Shown in pieces: positions 8,633 to 60,506 of a DNA stretch of 60,506 nucleotides. Positions within the stretch are counted from its first letter, which is position 1. Every line of letters begins with the position of its first letter. The DNA is taken from assembly GCA_016839605.1 (NCBI GenBank), contig JAEOTX010000150.1, positions 1 to 60,506 on the forward strand. Direction: 5' to 3'. Source of the stretch: Candidatus Thorarchaeota archaeon (GTDB taxonomy: Archaea; Asgardarchaeota; Thorarchaeia; Thorarchaeales; Thorarchaeaceae). The notes beneath the pieces are model-generated. The model was given only the letters and a program-made list of their open reading frames with translations. It was not told the origin of the DNA and searched no databases. Both the position numbers and the translations under genes were made by a program.

Positions 8633-10519
8633 ATGTCTGGAGCCAGATGGGACGAGAAGTACAAGAAGAAAATACTTCCATCCAAGGATGCCATCAAGAA
8701 GATTAAGAGAGGAACTCGAATCTTCCTAGGAACGGGGTGTGGAGTACCATATCATTTGGTGCAGGAGTTGGCGAATTATTCGGATCAGATGTCCGATAAT
8801 GAAATAGTCCATCTGCTCACACTGGGCGACACGCCGTCAGCAGATCCAAAGTTCCAAGCTCAATTCAGACATAACACCTTTTTTGTTTCAGAGAACATCC
8901 GTAACGCAGTTTCAGAGGGCCGAGCCGACTACTCACCAATAATGCTCTCTGACATCCCTCGTCTCTTTCGGACCAAGAGGATGCCTCTCGATGTAGCTTT
9001 GATACAGATTAGTCCGCCTGATGAACATGGGTTCAGCTCCATGGGTATCTCTGTTGACATCACCAAGTCCGCTGCAGAAAGTGCTGATTTAGTGATAGCT
9101 CAGGTCAATGACAAGATGCCTGTCACTCATGGCGACTCATTCATTGACATCAGAGATATCGATTATCTAGTCCCATTCAATGAACCTCTAAGGGAGTTCG
9201 AATCACACGAAGGTGATGAAACTATAGACCTCATTGGTGCCTATGTTGCACGACTTATCGAGAACGAGTCTACTCTGGAGCTAGGAATCGGGGCTCTACC
9301 ACAGGCTGTCTGTAACAATCTTCAGGAAACTGGTGTCATAGACCTCGGAATCCACACGGAGATGTTTAGCGACAGTCTAATTCCTCTAATAGAGAGTGGA
9401 GTTGTCACGAACAAGAAGAAGAGCATTCATAGAGGTCAGGTCATTGCGAGTTTTGCTATGGGCACCAAGAAACTCTATGAATATATACACAACAATCCGA
9501 TGTTTCACTTTCATGACACAGCCTACGTCAATGACCCATATGTCATAGGGCAGAACAAGAAAATGATAGCTATCAACTCAGCCCTTGAGATTGACCTGAC
9601 AGGTCAGGTGTGCGCAGACTCTATTGGACATAAGTTCTACAGTGGTATTGGCGGTCAAGTAGACTTCATCCGTGGAGCTTCGAGGTCACCTGGGGGCAAG
9701 GCCATCATTTGTATGCAGTCAACAGCCATGGACGGCAAGGTGTCACGGATTGTGCCACGGCTAAGTGAAGGTGCAGGAGTAGTAACGACACGTGGTGATG
9801 TTGATGTCGTGATAACCGAGTTTGGTCTAGCAATATTGCATGGAAAGACCATCAGAGAACGAGTTCTATCACTGATTGCAGTTGCACATCCCGACTTCAG
9901 AAACGATCTGCTTGAGGCTGCAAAGAAGATGCACTATGTCTTCGAGGACCAAGTACCATTCCAAGTCCAGGGGACCTACTTCCCAACAGAATATGAATAT
10001 CAGGAAACGTTCAAAGGTGTGGAGGGGCCTGTTACCGTCCACTTTAGACTCACTCGGCCAGACGATTCAGATAGGATTAAGGGCCTATTCTATGGCCTCT
10101 CAGAAGAGAGCATATATTTCAGGTTCTTAACGCCTCTGAAGAGCCTACCCAGACGAACCCTGCAAGACTTCTACGATGTAGATGCCGACAGAGATGTGTC
10201 TATTGTAGCAGTTGTCAGTCCAAGCGACGAAGGTGAGTCTGAGATAATCATAGGGGCAGGAAGGTATTTACTCAATAGAAGTACAAACGAGGCTGAGTTT
10301 GCCCTTCTTATCCGAGATGAGTATCAAGGAATGGGGATTGGGAGTTTCATGCTCTCTCACCTGATGCGAATTGCTAAGAGCAAGGGTGTGGAGGCTTTTG
10401 TCGCGTTTGTACACCCAAGGAATCAGCCTATGATCAGATTCCTGCACAAGACAGGGAAGATAGTTGAGAGTCATCTGAATATGCAGGACGACGAGTACAC
10501 TTTCAAGCTCAAACTTTGA
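8633..10519 (+). CDS. acetyl-CoA hydrolase/CoA-transferase family domain fused to a C-terminal Pat-type GNAT acetyltransferase
   Basis: The track ORF starts at 8555. The start is placed at ATG 8633 (MSGARWDEKYKKKIL) by alignment with the paralog start MASKEWTDKYKDKIL. The N-terminal ~480 aa are CoA-transferase-like (GTGCGVP, INSALEIDLTGQV, GIGGQVDF). The C-terminal ~170 aa are GNAT (YFRFL, AEFALLIRDEYQGMGIG). Confidence 0.85.
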   Translation: MSGARWDEKYKKKILPSKDAIKKIKRGTRIFLGTGCGVPYHLVQELANYSDQMSDNEIVHLLTLGDTPSADPKFQAQFRHNTFFVSENIRNAVSEGRADYSPIMLSDIPRLFRTKRMPLDVALIQISPPDEHGFSSMGISVDITKSAAESADLVIAQVNDKMPVTHGDSFIDIRDIDYLVPFNEPLREFESHEGDETIDLIGAYVARLIENESTLELGIGALPQAVCNNLQETGVIDLGIHTEMFSDSLIPLIESGVVTNKKKSIHRGQVIASFAMGTKKLYEYIHNNPMFHFHDTAYVNDPYVIGQNKKMIAINSALEIDLTGQVCADSIGHKFYSGIGGQVDFIRGASRSPGGKAIICMQSTAMDGKVSRIVPRLSEGAGVVTTRGDVDVVITEFGLAILHGKTIRERVLSLIAVAHPDFRNDLLEAAKKMHYVFEDQVPFQVQGTYFPTEYEYQETFKGVEGPVTVHFRLTRPDDSDRIKGLFYGLSEESIYFRFLTPLKSLPRRTLQDFYDVDADRDVSIVAVVSPSDEGESEIIIGAGRYLLNRSTNEAEFALLIRDEYQGMGIGSFMLSHLMRIAKSKGVEAFVAFVHPRNQPMIRFLHKTGKIVESHLNMQDDEYTFKLKL

Positions 10520-29057: not shown

Positions 29058-29165
29058 GCCCCTGTAGCTCAGACCGGTTAGATCGCCTCCTTGGTAAGGA
29101 GGAGGCCGCGGGATCTTGTTTCACTTCGAAGCGAGACGCGAATTCGAATCCCGCCAGGGGCTCCA
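29058..29165 (+). tRNA. tRNA-Thr (anticodon GGU) with a 30-nt intron in the T-arm (53/54), CCA encoded
   Basis: GCCCCTG-TA-GCTC-AGACCGGTTA-GATC-G-CCTCC-TTGGTAA-GGAGG-AGGCC-GCGGG-[29113-29142]-TTCGAAT-CCCGC-CAGGGGC-T-CCA. The mature length is 78 nt. Confidence 0.75.
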
Positions 29166-53881: not shown

Positions 53882-54002
53882 GCCGAGGTAGCCAAGCCCG
53901 GATTAAGGCGCTGGTCTTGAAAACCAGTATCTTCGGATGCATGGTGCCAAGATAACCAGTGTGCTTTGTCACGCGTGAGTTCAAATCTCACCCTCGGCGC
54001 CA
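53882..54002 (+). tRNA. tRNA-Ser (anticodon UGA) with canonical 37/38 intron (~32 nt), CCA encoded
   Basis: GCCGAGG-TA-GCC-AAGCCCGGATTAA-GGC-G-CTGGT-CTTGAA[53922-53953]A-ACCAG-long variable arm TGTGCTTTGTCACGC-GTGAG-TTCAAAT-CTCAC-CCTCGGC-G-CCA. Confidence 0.85.
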
Positions 54003-54022: not shown

Positions 54023-54817
54023 TTAGAGTTTACCCCCACAATGCGGACAGAAGCTGATTCCTTCGTCAATCTTTGCCTGACAGAACGGACAAACATGCTT
54101 TCCAGCTGGAACAGTCTGAGTTTCCCGAATGACTTGAATAGATACATCAACAGTCTTTGTGGTTCGAAGAGAATATTCATTATCAAAAACAACTAGTAAC
54201 TGTTCTTTCCTTGGGCTCTGATATGTCACATCAATCTCGCCGACCTTCTCCCTGGTGAAATATGCTTTGTCAGTGTGAATGCTGTCGGGGGTTTCATATA
54301 TCTTGGCTAAGATGTGCACGGTTATGTCATTACCCTTGGTCACACGACCAAAGATCCTGATTGTATCGTCCTTATTCACATCCACATCAATAGTTTCAAG
54401 GTATCCTGCATCTACCTCAAAACTCTCCCTGAGAGGCTCATCTCCGACCTCAAGCGGAGGGAACGCTACTTGAACGTGGACATCAATTGACTTGTACTTG
54501 GAGCGAGCATGGTAGTTATCGAAGACCAGGTAGACAACATCCCTCATCTCAACGACAACTGACTCATCCACATTACTCACCTTCTCTTCTGACCAGAGTG
54601 CATTGTCAGGGTCAGGGTCAAATTCCGTGACTAGGCCCACCAAGGGGGCCTTTTTCACATAGGCTGAAGGAAATAATGCGACATTGAAATCATCTCCGTC
54701 AACCTCCTTCGCCTTGATGTGAATAGCAGTCAGTTCTCTGCAATGTATTTCCACATATTCAAACTGACCTGCTTCAATTTCGATGTTCTTCTTGAATTCT
54801 CCACCTCGTAACCTCAT
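54023..54817 (-). CDS. hypothetical protein with internal duplication and C-terminal zinc ribbon
   Basis: 264 aa. Two similar halves (VVYLVFDNYHARSKYKSIDVHVQV and LLVVFDNEYSLRTTKTVDVSIQV), ending in CPFCQAKIDEGISFCPHCGGKL. Confidence 0.55.
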   Translation of the reverse strand: MRLRGGEFKKNIEIEAGQFEYVEIHCRELTAIHIKAKEVDGDDFNVALFPSAYVKKAPLVGLVTEFDPDPDNALWSEEKVSNVDESVVVEMRDVVYLVFDNYHARSKYKSIDVHVQVAFPPLEVGDEPLRESFEVDAGYLETIDVDVNKDDTIRIFGRVTKGNDITVHILAKIYETPDSIHTDKAYFTREKVGEIDVTYQSPRKEQLLVVFDNEYSLRTTKTVDVSIQVIRETQTVPAGKHVCPFCQAKIDEGISFCPHCGGKL

Positions 54818-56826: not shown

Positions 56827-57612
56827 TCAATCATCTGCTTCATCTGGTGGCCACTCGATAATGCCGTATGGCTGGTCGAAATAGGGTGCAATCTGTTTGA
56901 ACCTCTTGCCACGTCCTCTATTAAATTTGAAAAATGTGACATAGCAGCACGCATCTGCCAATTGAACTCCTGGACTCAATTCAGAAGGAGTAAAGAAGCA
57001 TGTTTCCACTATGTTAAGATAGTGCGTTTGTTGGAAATGTAGATTCTCTCTTGTTTTAGGAGTGCGTATCCCACCATCTTCCATCACCTGATAGGTCCAA
57101 AGCTGCTTCAATTTGTCTCTTGTCTTATGCTCACTGTCCATAATCATCAAACCAATATCGTCGATTCTTCCAAGGTACTTGTCAAATCGATTTATGAGAT
57201 AAAGCGGGCCCAGAATCGGGGCTACTAGTGCACGAGTCCTTGTCTTTCCGGACCTAGTTATGTACATATAGCGCTCGAAGTGTTCTTTCTTATGAATGAC
57301 AGCAGCAAAGAGTGTTGGCTTGATTTCTTCGATGATTTTGAAGATGCCGTCTGTGAGACGCTTCCTCTCTCGATTCGTAAGCTGGCCATATGCCCCCTTA
57401 CCTGCAACTATGTCAACGTGATGGAACTCAGTCGGCTTTTCATCATAGCTCTCGAAAGCACGTGATAGAAGTCCGGTGAGAGTGACAGAAGCTCCAAGCC
57501 ATGCCTTTGCATCCATTGAGAGCCCTACAGTAACATGAATGTTAGTTTCGCTTTTGCCGTAGGGGTCAGGCCATCCTTCGTTGCCGGAGGAATCAACAAA
57601 CATTATCTTCAT
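56827..57612 (-). CDS. DUF3800-like protein
   Basis: 261 aa. N-terminal IMFVDSSGNEG (DESG-like) and C-terminal SPGVQLADACCY (QLAD-like) are the two motifs I associate with DUF3800. Confidence 0.6.
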   Translation of the reverse strand: MKIMFVDSSGNEGWPDPYGKSETNIHVTVGLSMDAKAWLGASVTLTGLLSRAFESYDEKPTEFHHVDIVAGKGAYGQLTNRERKRLTDGIFKIIEEIKPTLFAAVIHKKEHFERYMYITRSGKTRTRALVAPILGPLYLINRFDKYLGRIDDIGLMIMDSEHKTRDKLKQLWTYQVMEDGGIRTPKTRENLHFQQTHYLNIVETCFFTPSELSPGVQLADACCYVTFFKFNRGRGKRFKQIAPYFDQPYGIIEWPPDEADD

Positions 57613-57864: not shown

Positions 57865-60273
57865 TCATGAAATCATAGTTTGCTCAATTGAGAGACACCG
57901 ACTCAGAATATAGTCTAACGCACTGAAGTCTGCAAGATTCTCTGTGAACATCTCGAGAGCCGCGTTATCCAAAGCATGTTGTAGCAATCTTCCTGCTGCC
58001 TCAAATTTGAGCCGTACTCTTTTCCTAGCCAAATCACAGCTATTAATGAGCACCATTCTCCATGAGTCGGAGATCTCTACGTTCCATAGTCCAGAGGATT
58101 GGCTTCTGCAGGTGATGCCCATCATCTCAAGTGTTCTAAGTTGCCTTCGAATACCCCTATCAGATAACCCGGTTTTAGAGCCGAGAGCTCCAATCGCTAC
58201 AGGATTTCTTGATTGAAGAATCACCCCGAGCACTTCATTTTCCAAAGCCAGGAGCATGGATTTGAAGAGTTTCAAGTTCATTCTTGGACTCAAAGACGGA
58301 ATTTCCGTATGCTTGAAGGAAATTAATGCTTCAACCAAGAAAAGAAGGTTCATCATGCCTTCTCTCAAATCAATATCTCCTCTCCAACCGGCAGAATACG
58401 AGTTTTGTCGAATCTCAAGATTCTCAGAACACAGATTTAGGAGCCATTCCAAGTCGTTGTGATGAATCTCGACAATCTTCCGACCTTCCGAGGTCATAGG
58501 ACCTCCCTGGATGATTGAAACAACGAAACTGCCCCATGAGAGAACTTCTTTCCCATGCTCGGTCAACCTATAGACTGCTGCAGCTCTCTGTGGCTTTCTT
58601 ACTCTCCTTACATAACCTCGACTGCCTAGCTCACCCAGAATTCTTGACAGCCAACTACTGCTAAGAGATGTTGCCTCGCATAATTCCTGGGTATTCATTT
58701 CAGATTTAAATTCCAGACTAGCTAGGACTTCAAGAGATCCCCTTGAAGACAGCGCTTTGCACCGTGCTTTTAATTCGTAGATTAAAGAACTAAATGATGC
58801 TTCGGCCTCTTTATTCCCACGACTCTCATACCTGTTCCTAATAGTCTGTGCCATGTCGGGTGAAATACCTGCATATTCTAAGATGGCGCAATCACTGGTT
58901 GGATGATGACTAATGGTTCGTTTCAAAAACGCATTGAGCGCATCCATAACATACTGAGGTGCAGTTTCACTTAACCGTCCCAGATATTGACGAGCGTTTC
59001 GTTCAAAGAACTCCAAGTATCTTTCATTGTTTGCCATCAAGTTTCGCGCAGAAAATTCGGAAGTGCATCGAATCATAGCCTCATCTGGTTCTGGTACTGC
59101 TACTAGAGCTGGCAGTCTGATAGAGTCCCACGGTTCCATGCCATGAATTGGTTGACGATGTACCAAGGGACTTACCGTTTCAAGCTCTCCCATATTCTCA
59201 ACCCTGACAAAAGCTCCTCCGGTTGGAAGTGAAATCAAACCTTCACGACTCCATACATAGTCTAGGCAGAGTGCTTCACCTACGACTTTCTTAGCTTGTG
59301 GATCTATAAGTTTCCCAACAACCCACATGTTGCAGCTTCCAAGTACGTGACTACTGATTTGGTGAGGCATCTGGTCAACTATCATGAATCCAATTCCCAA
59401 TTTCCGTCCTTCGATGAGAGCTCTCTCCAAGTGTGACCTCTCACCTTTTCTATCTGCTCTACGAATCTCACTGATGAAGTTGTGAGCCTCCTCAAGGACG
59501 ACTAACACATTATTCGTTGGCGCTATATTGTGAGTGCGTTGCCAAGCACGATAAGCAAAAAGCTTGGCCACAGTAATACTAACCAGCAGTTCATGTGCAC
59601 GAGTAATACCTGTTGATGGAAGTTGAACAACCAATAGTCCCTTTTCGAAATCAGTCGGCTGAAAACCTCCTCTTTCCTTAACACAGCGACCGACTTCTGA
59701 GTCCAAGAGGCTCTCAAGTCGGTTCTGAACACTCACATGACTACTGACTTCTGATGACCTTTGCCGAGGTCTATAATCCCGTGCCTCATCCAGAAGCTCA
59801 TCCAAGGTTGGAGGTTTATCTTGACTGGATGGTGAGTCTAGGGTCAGACTATTTGCAGCCTTCTGAAGAATAGCTATGGATGGATCTTTGAGACCGTAGT
59901 TCTGCGCAAATACTTGAATGAAAGTTGGAAACCATTCATCTAGCCGCATGCCGGGTGGAGGTTCGAGTGGGTTCTGTATGAACTCTCTGTAGTCTATGAC
60001 GACTATGTCTTTTCTTACCGCAAGGAGCTTCTCATAATCCCTCGAATTGTCAAATACGATACCTCCATAGTCTGACTCCAAAGCAGCTATCACAATCTTC
60101 ATGGCTTTCTGAGTCTTGCCTGAGCCAATTGAACCTGCCACCAATACTCCCTTAGTGAGCTCATCGGGATGACGCCGAATATACTCATAGAGGTCTATGT
60201 GCCGTCCTCGATTACGAATCACACTGGCTATGTTCTGTGAAATATCGCTTTGGTCATCAGGCAAGTCTTGCAT
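57865..60273 (-). CDS. HerA/FtsK-superfamily (DUF87-like) P-loop ATPase fused to two C-terminal winged-helix domains
   Basis: 802 aa. Walker A VAGSIGSGKT and Walker B NVLVVLEEAH, with RKLGIGFMIVDQMP downstream. C-terminal wHTH 1 is NTQELCEATSLSSSWLSRILGELGSRGYVRRV..YRLTEHG. wHTH 2 is IGALGSKTGLSDRGIRRQLRTLEMMGI. Confidence 0.8.
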   Translation of the reverse strand: MQDLPDDQSDISQNIASVIRNRGRHIDLYEYIRRHPDELTKGVLVAGSIGSGKTQKAMKIVIAALESDYGGIVFDNSRDYEKLLAVRKDIVVIDYREFIQNPLEPPPGMRLDEWFPTFIQVFAQNYGLKDPSIAILQKAANSLTLDSPSSQDKPPTLDELLDEARDYRPRQRSSEVSSHVSVQNRLESLLDSEVGRCVKERGGFQPTDFEKGLLVVQLPSTGITRAHELLVSITVAKLFAYRAWQRTHNIAPTNNVLVVLEEAHNFISEIRRADRKGERSHLERALIEGRKLGIGFMIVDQMPHQISSHVLGSCNMWVVGKLIDPQAKKVVGEALCLDYVWSREGLISLPTGGAFVRVENMGELETVSPLVHRQPIHGMEPWDSIRLPALVAVPEPDEAMIRCTSEFSARNLMANNERYLEFFERNARQYLGRLSETAPQYVMDALNAFLKRTISHHPTSDCAILEYAGISPDMAQTIRNRYESRGNKEAEASFSSLIYELKARCKALSSRGSLEVLASLEFKSEMNTQELCEATSLSSSWLSRILGELGSRGYVRRVRKPQRAAAVYRLTEHGKEVLSWGSFVVSIIQGGPMTSEGRKIVEIHHNDLEWLLNLCSENLEIRQNSYSAGWRGDIDLREGMMNLLFLVEALISFKHTEIPSLSPRMNLKLFKSMLLALENEVLGVILQSRNPVAIGALGSKTGLSDRGIRRQLRTLEMMGITCRSQSSGLWNVEISDSWRMVLINSCDLARKRVRLKFEAAGRLLQHALDNAALEMFTENLADFSALDYILSRCLSIEQTMIS

Positions 60274-60303: not shown

Positions 60304-60322
60304 CTATTTGAGGGCCTTTAGA

Positions 60323-60506
60323 GGACATTTTGTAGCAACTATGAAGTGATTTGCTGGACATTTGTCAGCAATCTTAGCAGAAAATTCTGACATGTGATAG
60401 CAAAACGAACTGGTCAAGCGGACATGAGAACGCAAAAGGACCATGACTAAGGGACAGGAGGACGCAAGGGGCGCGAATTAGAGGGACAGCTGAGTGCAAT
60501 CAGAAA
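60323..60506. repeat. phased array of six GGACA-N7-GCAA sites with a 32-bp period (truncated by the window end)
   Basis: Units start at 60323, 60356, 60388, 60420, 60452 and 60484: GGACATTTTGTAGCAA, GGACATTTGTCAGCAA, TGACATGTGATAGCAA, GGACATGAGAACGCAA, GGACAGGAGGACGCAA, GGACAGCTGAGTGCAA. The intervening 16-17 nt are unrelated, and no ORF covers the region. Confidence 0.75.

Follow-up and report, generated by a model that had tools for sequence, protein, structure and literature searches.

A six-unit phased site array between the divergent genes of a HerA-like ATPase and a nuclease-like partner in Thorarchaeota

What is the role of six evenly spaced DNA sites that all point in the same direction beside an ATPase gene, and which protein reads them? 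This question is raised by the last 184 bp of a 60,506-nucleotide (nt) stretch of DNA from Candidatus Thorarchaeota archaeon (contig JAEOTX010000150.1, GenBank assembly GCA_016839605.1), which was analyzed at its full length and is called the window here. The array occupies positions 60323–60506 and adjoins the gene of an 802-residue P-loop ATPase of the HerA/FtsK type (57865..60273, minus strand). The array is a real, strongly constrained, and lineage-specific cis element, and it probably represents a new variant of the phased operator arrays. We propose, with moderate confidence, that it is a phased operator or docking platform, which would be read by a protein encoded at the locus, most likely the HerA-like ATPase, and would control both this gene and a divergent partner gene. 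The starting point was an earlier reading of the same letters (the original prediction). Fourteen distinct homologous loci were fetched. The nearest of them (L001) encodes an ATPase that is 84% identical to that of the window, is collinear with the window through the array, and supplied the sequence beyond the window end.

In the window, GGACA-N7-GCAA starts at 60323, 60356, 60420, 60452, and 60484, and TGACA-N7-GCAA starts at 60388, giving unit-to-unit spacings of 33, 32, 32, 32, and 32 bp. The units are all on the plus strand: GGACATTTTGTAGCAA (unit 1, 60323..60338), GGACATTTGTCAGCAA (unit 2, 60356..60371), TGACATGTGATAGCAA (unit 3, 60388..60403), GGACATGAGAACGCAA (unit 4, 60420..60435), GGACAGGAGGACGCAA (unit 5, 60452..60467), and GGACAGCTGAGTGCAA (unit 6, the final unit, 60484..60499). 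Unit 3 is the sole G-to-T variant, and the same variant is present in L001. The exact motif GGACA-N7-GCAA occurs seven times in the 60.5-kb window, and five of these occurrences fall within the 184 bp of the array. Dinucleotide-preserving shuffles gave an expectation of 0.60 ± 0.70 exact motifs per window, and none of 100 reached seven; the phased six-unit score of the array has a z value of 13 against the shuffles. The starts and spacings of the six units given in the original prediction were thereby confirmed. The 32-bp period corresponds to three turns of 10.7 bp, and all six sites have the same orientation. With no fewer than three similar sites at integral helical turns, the element belongs to the phased arrays.

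The original prediction also had the array running on past the window. The window stops 7 nt after unit 6, and in the collinear L001 locus the array ends after this unit; all that the window lacks is the last spacer, a second TATA-like box, and the partner gene. Tandem Repeats Finder (TRF) reported no tandem repeat in the array region, even at a score of 30, because the units have only about nine positions in common. A plain satellite was rejected, as TRF finds nothing and the identity of the spacers is at chance level, and a CRISPR array, in which near-identical repeats of 24–48 bp would alternate with unique spacers, was rejected because only about 9 of the 32 positions are shared, TRF is silent, and the loci contain no cas genes. 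No open frame runs through the array. Stops are present in six of six frames, which bears out its predicted non-coding nature and, together with a period that is not a multiple of three, rules out a coding repeat. The evidence supports helically phased bipartite sites under selection, and not a decaying satellite. A three-unit pattern match in IMG/VR (L184, 4280–4380; IMGVR_UViG_2706794529_000002) turned out to be an unrelated, exact 32-bp tandem repeat (GGCACCGCACGGGCACCGCTCGGCAACCATAG). It is set among shorter GGCACC-type repeats and looks like an ordinary iteron or tandem-repeat region.

The six-unit layout is found in all 14 related loci examined. At the best register, units 1 to 6 cover 158–161 bp, even between loci with ATPases that are only 40% identical, and the unit spacing is 30–33 bp, mostly 32 bp. 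Absence of the phased motif from homologous loci had been named as an outcome that would refute the original prediction, and this outcome did not materialize. When the loci were scored with a pattern derived from the window array, the motif was present with z ≥ 4.5 in 12 of the 15 loci scored; it was weak in L170 and L172 (z 3.3) and not significant in L177 (z 1.7). The phased score was above all 300 shuffles in 13 of the 15 loci. MAFFT aligned 13 arrays nearly gap-free, with alignment columns at the GG of every unit that are invariant or nearly so. No orphan arrays came up when an nhmmer profile of the array was searched against the window and roughly 1 Mb of sequence from the fetched loci. 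Unit 1 and the start of the ATPase gene are 49 nt apart in the window and 40–59 nt apart across the loci. In L009, the called ATG of this gene is probably 75 nt too far downstream (9926–10001); a GTG start at 9926 restores the conserved N-terminus and places unit 1 at a distance of 55 nt, like in the other loci.

The family consensus of the site is GG-N-C-A-T-N6-G-C-A. Over 12 loci, the information lies in positions 1–2 (GG, 1.5–1.75 bits), 4–6 (C-A-T), and 13–15 (G-C-A), the tract between the halves is T-rich, and a C usually precedes the GG. GGACA, which had been taken for a fixed motif, is a local variant of this consensus. It occurs in the window and L001, while L090 and L007 have GGTCA, L012 has GGCAN, and L009 has GG(A/C)AC (GGMAC). 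At positions 3–5, the identity among the units of a locus is 0.60, versus 0.42 when the units were shuffled among loci, and none of 2000 permutations reached 0.60. The spacers show no homogeneity within a locus (0.282 versus 0.281 shuffled). Homogenization by gene conversion is therefore unlikely, because the spacers would have been homogenized too. This pattern points to units that track the specificity of a reader encoded at the locus and change together at contact-type positions only. Archaeal histones or general chromatin positioning were ruled out by the locus-specific site variants. The units of L012 (2346–2527, minus strand; C-GGCAG-N6-TGCAA) match the −24/−12 consensus of bacterial sigma-54 promoters (TGGCAC-N5-TTGCA) in sequence and spacing. 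GG-N10-GC has the −24/−12 spacing, but sigma-54 promoters were rejected because the genome is archaeal and six tandem promoters would be senseless; the likeness is taken as a coincidence.

The gap and spacers had been described as showing no conservation. This holds between the units of a single array, where the spacer identity is 0.28, but not between orthologous arrays. The window and L001 differ at 19 of 129 gap and spacer positions, versus 80 of 294 four-fold sites of the adjacent gene (p = 0.006). Over the whole array, 23 of 184 positions differ, versus the same 80 of 294 sites (p = 1.4e-4). The unit-5 spacer is the only one that is conserved in the family, with a between-locus identity of 0.495 versus approximately 0.27 for the other five. 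It carries a GCGCG box (60468..60477, plus strand; GGGGCGCGAA) with the family consensus (T/G)C(C/G)GCGCG(A/G)A, and the box is at the same place in L001, L005, L007, L009, L011, L012, and L176. Therefore, the units are not interchangeable. The GCGCG box may be a site for a second factor.

The surroundings of the array suggest what it may act on. A TATA-like box (box A, 60304..60312, minus strand) reads CTCAAATAG toward the ATPase gene, approximately 31–39 nt upstream of its ATG, and 11 nt separate the box end at 60312 from unit 1. A similar sequence is present at the same place in 13 loci; across the loci, its distal end is about 19 nt before unit 1 and its orientation is toward the ATPase gene. 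Box A is the putative core promoter of this gene. In L001, a 16-nt spacer separates unit 6 from a second box (box B, GTATATTAG..CTAGA), and beyond this box come a leader of about 110 nt and the divergently oriented partner gene. In the other loci, about 5 nt separate unit 6 from box B, which is oriented toward the partner gene. The two boxes are inverted and outward-reading, lie at fixed distances from the array, and both resemble the TATA-like boxes upstream of other window genes. The array thus appears to fill approximately 190 bp between two divergent archaeal core promoters. Such a location between outward-reading TATA-like boxes corresponds, as judged from the predicted boxes, to the geometry of an operator or upstream activating sequence and not to that of an origin or a plasmid centromere. 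A pyrimidine-rich leader with a conserved CCTACTACTAC tract precedes the partner gene (L001, ~1440–1560; L002, ~140–250; L176, ~2310–2420; minus strand). Its end carries a Shine-Dalgarno-like sequence of the GGAGGTGAT type (AAGTGA in L001 and L176), 5–8 nt before the ATG.

The original prediction compared the array with iterons or with the centromere of an integrated plasmid-like element. We consider an iteron origin or a partition centromere very improbable. Phased direct repeats beside a winged-helix nucleoside triphosphatase (NTPase) have a formal likeness to Rep iterons and to the parC-ParR/ParM system (PMC2241845), and the module is present in varied chromosomal contexts. As in plasmid iterons with Rep, the repeats appear to co-evolve with a winged-helix protein encoded next door. 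However, the conserved module contains no Rep, Orc1/Cdc6, primase, ParA, ParM, or TubZ, and only one locus happens to lie 4–6 kb from orc1/polD. The GC content of the arrays is 0.41–0.56, their longest A/T run is 4–7 nt, and there is no AT-rich unwinding element. The GC-skew check for an origin was performed and gave no feature at the window end. No relatives were found in IMG/VR, the chromosomal neighbors are ordinary, and there is neither a plasmid nor a virus backbone; the array lies between two putative promoters. An iteron or origin was rejected for the lack of an unwinding element and because the neighbors encode a HerA-like ATPase and an HTH/LAGLIDADG protein, and not an initiator family. 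Partition centromeres (parC/parS/tubC) were rejected because the Pfam, PDB, and fold searches gave only HerA/VirB4/TrwB-type matches. In R1 parC, direct repeats at the promoter of the NTPase operon bind one unit each, forming a bent, autoregulatory complex (PMC2241845). The array is similar in that its direct repeats flank or abut the putative promoter of an adjacent NTPase gene. In contrast, R1 parC consists of 2 × 5 contiguous 11-bp repeats with a small ribbon-helix-helix reader and the actin-like NTPase ParM, while the array has a period of 32 bp, cores of 16 bp, and no partition genes.

A further formal parallel is found among archaeal and bacterial operators. Lrp-type oligomers bind cooperatively to sites on the same face of the helix whose centers are two or three turns apart, and the DNA wraps around their peripheral DNA-binding domains (PMC2995911). 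The arrays of Lrp and other feast/famine regulatory proteins (Ss-LrpB, FL11, and Ptr2) resemble the window array in having several sites on one face at integral-turn spacing, and they are located in the control region of the regulator itself, as the array is located beside the ATPase gene (PMC2995911). Unlike in these systems, the units of the array are non-palindromic direct repeats, there are always six sites between the putative divergent promoters, the locus has no Lrp/AsnC gene with a RAM domain, and the candidate reader, a HerA-type P-loop ATPase, has two dissimilar winged helices. An Lrp/AsnC operator, with palindromic boxes of 13–15 bp that a RAM-domain dimer reads, was rejected because the units are asymmetric (GG...GCA) and neither flanking protein has an Lrp/AsnC domain.

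The array could also be transcribed and act as RNA: its six repeats could titrate a protein as a sponge or be processed, or it could serve as a long regulatory leader of one of the two genes. We regard this as hardly probable at all. Bacterial repeat-bearing RNAs titrate oligomeric proteins, and one TATA-like box could fire inward because boxes for the TATA-binding protein are nearly symmetric. However, RNAalifold found no conserved pairs over the 13-locus alignment, the folding energies are ordinary on both strands (z −1.0 and −0.4), and there is no Rfam match, so that the array does not fall among structured or repeat RNAs. In addition, the adjacent proteins carry winged helix-turn-helix (wHTH) and HTH domains of the DNA type. 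The lack of RNA pairs, the ordinary folds, the outward direction of the promoter-like boxes, and the exact three-turn phase are the reasons why the array is treated as a DNA element.

Which protein would read it? The ATPase was characterized with Pfam, PDB profiles, and an AlphaFold2 model searched with Foldseek. It has a Walker A motif (GSIGSGKT, residues 47–54) and a Walker B motif (VLVVLEEAH, residues 256–264), and the P-loop and the Walker B motif (VLEEAH) are invariant in 16 homologues. Pfam matched MarR, HTH_11, and DUF87, and the PDB profile matches are to HerA (down to E 3.5e-14) and MarR. The best Foldseek matches of the model (predicted local distance difference test score 76) are hexameric Sulfolobus HerA (4d2i), Sir2-HerA, DUF4297-HerA, VirB4, and TrwB, with a probability of 1.00 for 4d2i and 8xau. 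Its Walker motifs and its RecA-like core, which can be superposed on HerA, place the protein in the HerA/FtsK superfamily. It is not a HerA in the strict sense because it has no N-terminal HAS barrel; the P-loop begins at residue 47, and only short helices precede it in the model. By analogy with the solved relatives of its core, which are all hexamers, the ATPase would form a hexameric ring.

The original prediction of a winged helix in this ATPase was borne out, and there are in fact two such domains in the C-terminal half, at about 490–614 (MarR-like) and 663–756. Within this half, which is otherwise divergent, conservation peaks in the recognition helices (SxSW[LTI][SN]R and R[SG][IVL]RR). 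The double-wHTH module has 13 matches among 1.84 billion cluster representatives; at least seven are known members of this ATPase family, and the other six are short or partial. Two winged helices suit a non-palindromic bipartite site with halves about one turn apart. We favor the ATPase as the reader because its two different winged helices suit the asymmetric site, their recognition helices are so well conserved, and, like the array, it is constant, while the class of the partner gene varies.

In the proposed mechanism, the six same-oriented bipartite sites, three turns apart, would form a nucleoprotein platform at the DNA level. The two winged helices of the ATPase would read one site, one of them binding the GGNCA half and the other the GCA half about one turn away. 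One HerA-type ring or a cooperative oligomer would hold the whole intergenic region of about 190 bp, bending or wrapping the DNA, and the bound complex would set the transcription of the ATPase gene and of the nuclease-like partner gene. The stoichiometry and the regulatory sign in this scheme are speculation. A more specific form, in which the six sites template one hexamer, every protomer docking on one site through its two winged helices, and the parked wrap of about 190 bp silences, or upon a signal releases, both the motor and its homing-type nuclease (LAGLIDADG or HNH-like), seems rather unlikely to us.

Several points weigh against an ATPase-read operator. Each hexamer protomer would possibly have one site, and this correspondence draws on the family precedent for hexamers only. 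MarR-type winged helices are usually dimers on palindromes. No clean match was found between the site variants and the residues of the wHTH recognition helices that would amount to a recognition code. Between the window and L001, the GGACA positions have changed as often (4 of 30) as the spacers (13 of 87); the GCAA positions are unchanged (0 of 24) and are the only part that looks specially protected. The ATPase genes of L172 and L177 are intact, yet their arrays are weak or degenerate under the window-derived scoring. Finally, the partner proteins, with one to five HTH modules, one of which is common across classes, are credible as alternative or additional readers.

The partner gene lies beyond the window in the divergent orientation and encodes an HTH-rich protein. 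In the relatives, there are three classes, with lengths from 351 to approximately 850 residues and one to five HTH modules of the HTH_23/HTH_7 type. Class 1 (L001, L005, L011, and L172) has N-terminal HTH modules and a C-terminal region of about 280 residues, whose AlphaFold2 model matched I-Tsp061I, PI-SceI, and I-DmoI in Foldseek (E 7e-6 to 1e-3), and also WhiA. LAGLIDADG_3 matches are weak and were found in six of ten class-1 members, and both LAGLIDADG-type helices have invariant acidic residues (D360 and E456/E457; motifs aligned by eye). Class 2 (L009 and L170) has repeated HTH modules and LAGLIDADG_3 matches of 25.3 and 22.9 bits (cut-off, 22.5). The partners of both classes are predicted to have the double-LAGLIDADG fold, and the class-1 partner may be catalytically active as a nuclease and not only regulatory. 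Like WhiA, it combines a LAGLIDADG fold with HTH, but the domain order is reversed and, unlike in WhiA, the acidic residues of both helices are retained. In class 3 (L007 and L012), tandem HTH modules, two to five in number, are combined with a Cys/His motif, which matches the HNH profile over its full length but does not reach the cut-off (E 0.013). In a profile comparison, classes 1 and 2 had no more than one HTH module in common (hhalign E 5e-4, probability 31%). A homologue search with the L001-type partner returned only three proteins, and PDB sequence searches with the partner proteins gave nothing useful.

The HTH modules or, at some loci, the LAGLIDADG domain of the partner may themselves read the six units, either as an autoregulatory operator or as protected or decoy sites of a homing-type endonuclease, with the ATPase merely co-regulated. 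We consider this unlikely. The partners do have HTH modules to spare, one of which is the only segment common to classes 1 and 2, and double-LAGLIDADG domains, such as that modeled for class 1, read asymmetric sites of 16–22 bp with poorly specified centers. However, the unit number and layout of the array are unchanged whichever partner class is present, while the class, the length, and the HTH count of the partner vary. The Cys/His (HNH-like) partners have no LAGLIDADG match, yet the array of L012 is among the clearer ones. Tandem HTH modules with short linkers cannot span 32 bp each. Six-unit arrays also persist where the partner gene is damaged or crowded. In L003 (7658–9424), a TnpB element (Cas12f1-like_TNB / OrfB_IS605) interrupts it, and the register of the array is kept; in L176 (999–2309), a TnpB gene lies just past a 436-residue partner open reading frame, and the register is blurred in units 2–3. 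Both TnpB genes adjoin the side of the module that carries the array.

The relation of the ATPase to DNA-tracking motors raises another possibility. FtsK belongs to the same ATPase superfamily as HerA. The array may be a loading or parking site of the HerA-like motor with a mainly non-transcriptional role, similar to the one-way ring assembly at the FtsK orienting polar sequences (KOPS), in a defense or homing module; from there, the motor would translocate or release its nuclease partner. We judge this quite unlikely. The C-terminal winged helix of FtsK (the gamma domain) reads the oriented KOPS and nucleates a hexamer next to the motif, on one side only (PMC2680272); all six sites of the array likewise share one orientation, and both systems combine a motor of a hexameric superfamily, a C-terminal winged helix, and short oriented motifs. 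KOPS are single 8-bp motifs that are scattered over the chromosome and bind several gamma domains each. In contrast, the array has six bipartite sites clustered in the promoter region of the motor itself and two winged helices per protomer. Its fixed place between two putative core promoters is needed by an operator but unnecessary for loading, and the sequence scanned contained no arrays other than those of the gene pair.

The nearest solved relatives of the ATPase are HerA rings with nuclease or Sir2 effectors, and this also speaks for loading in a defense context. The effector domains are swapped among the loci (LAGLIDADG and HNH-like), which is typical of defense modules, and the module is multi-copy in some metagenome-assembled genomes, beside genes of restriction-modification (RM)-like, GIY-YIG, DUF3800, and TnpB proteins. 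As in HerA-NurA, Sir2-HerA, and DUF4297-HerA, a HerA core is paired with a nuclease-type or other effector whose identity varies. Unlike in those systems, the ATPase has no HAS barrel and has a unique double-wHTH C-terminal half, the partner combines HTH with LAGLIDADG or HNH-like domains, and the two genes are divergent and not operonic. We know of no HerA system with a six-site array. PADLOC found no known defense system, but only generic similarity to HerA and to a Csa3-type wHTH.

The module of ATPase gene, array, and partner gene is confined to Thorarchaeota and has not been described before. Profile scans with the ATPase in GTDB genomes, JGI metagenomes, and IMG/VR found close relatives only on Thorarchaeota-type contigs, and the nearest relatives with a named source are labeled Candidatus Thorarchaeota. 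The scans added only three close loci (L011, L012, and L090), the remaining matches being generic HerA, and there were no relatives on viral contigs in IMG/VR. The gene content of the window is archaeal and includes intron-bearing tRNAs as well as genes for archease and archaeal-type ribosomal proteins. The loci are chromosomal, and their surroundings vary. The gene downstream of the ATPase gene differs among them, encoding a DUF3800 protein in the window (56827–57612, minus strand, directly downstream), a type IIG RM-like protein in L001, a GIY-YIG protein in L177, and a NosD-like protein in L007. Because these neighbors are not conserved, the conserved module consists of the divergent pair and the array only. 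One copy (L007/L008, 3171–6083) lies 4–6 kb from orc1/cdc6 and the gene for the PolD small subunit, and another (L005, 2918–7809) is directly beside smc-scpA-scpB. No functional link was read into either neighborhood because the contexts differ among the loci.

Two further features of the window were noted. Rfam matched tRNAs at 53882–53999 and 29058–29162 (both plus strand; 118 and 105 nt), which ARAGORN did not report and which are probably intron-bearing archaeal tRNAs. The former borders a stretch of lower GC content (0.42 at 54–56 kb), and its distance to the ATPase gene is about 4 kb. Nearby, the gene at 54023–54817 (minus strand) encodes a 264-residue protein with a borderline emp24/GOLD match (26.4 bits versus a cut-off of 25.9) and a C-terminal zinc ribbon. 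This protein may represent a eukaryote-like trafficking domain in an Asgard genome.

The cis-regulatory architecture of Asgard archaea is almost unexplored, and the array is a sharply defined and testable element of it. The gene pair attached to the array, a HerA-like ATPase with wHTH domains and a nuclease-like partner, had not been described in Thorarchaeota. The array appears to tie a ring ATPase of the HerA/FtsK type to sequence-specific DNA recognition, and it links this ATPase to interchangeable partners of the homing-nuclease type. If one ring reads the six sites, this would be a new way to position a hexameric motor on DNA and a compact model of how DNA wrapping can control transcription in the archaeal lineage nearest to eukaryotes. 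If the six sites template a hexamer, the locus would be a new Asgard-specific defense or selfish module, with a kind of motor-DNA recognition that is undescribed for FtsK/HerA ATPases. Even if the array is an ordinary autoregulatory operator, it still gives a binding motif and a first way into the function of an uncharacterized gene pair of Thorarchaeota.

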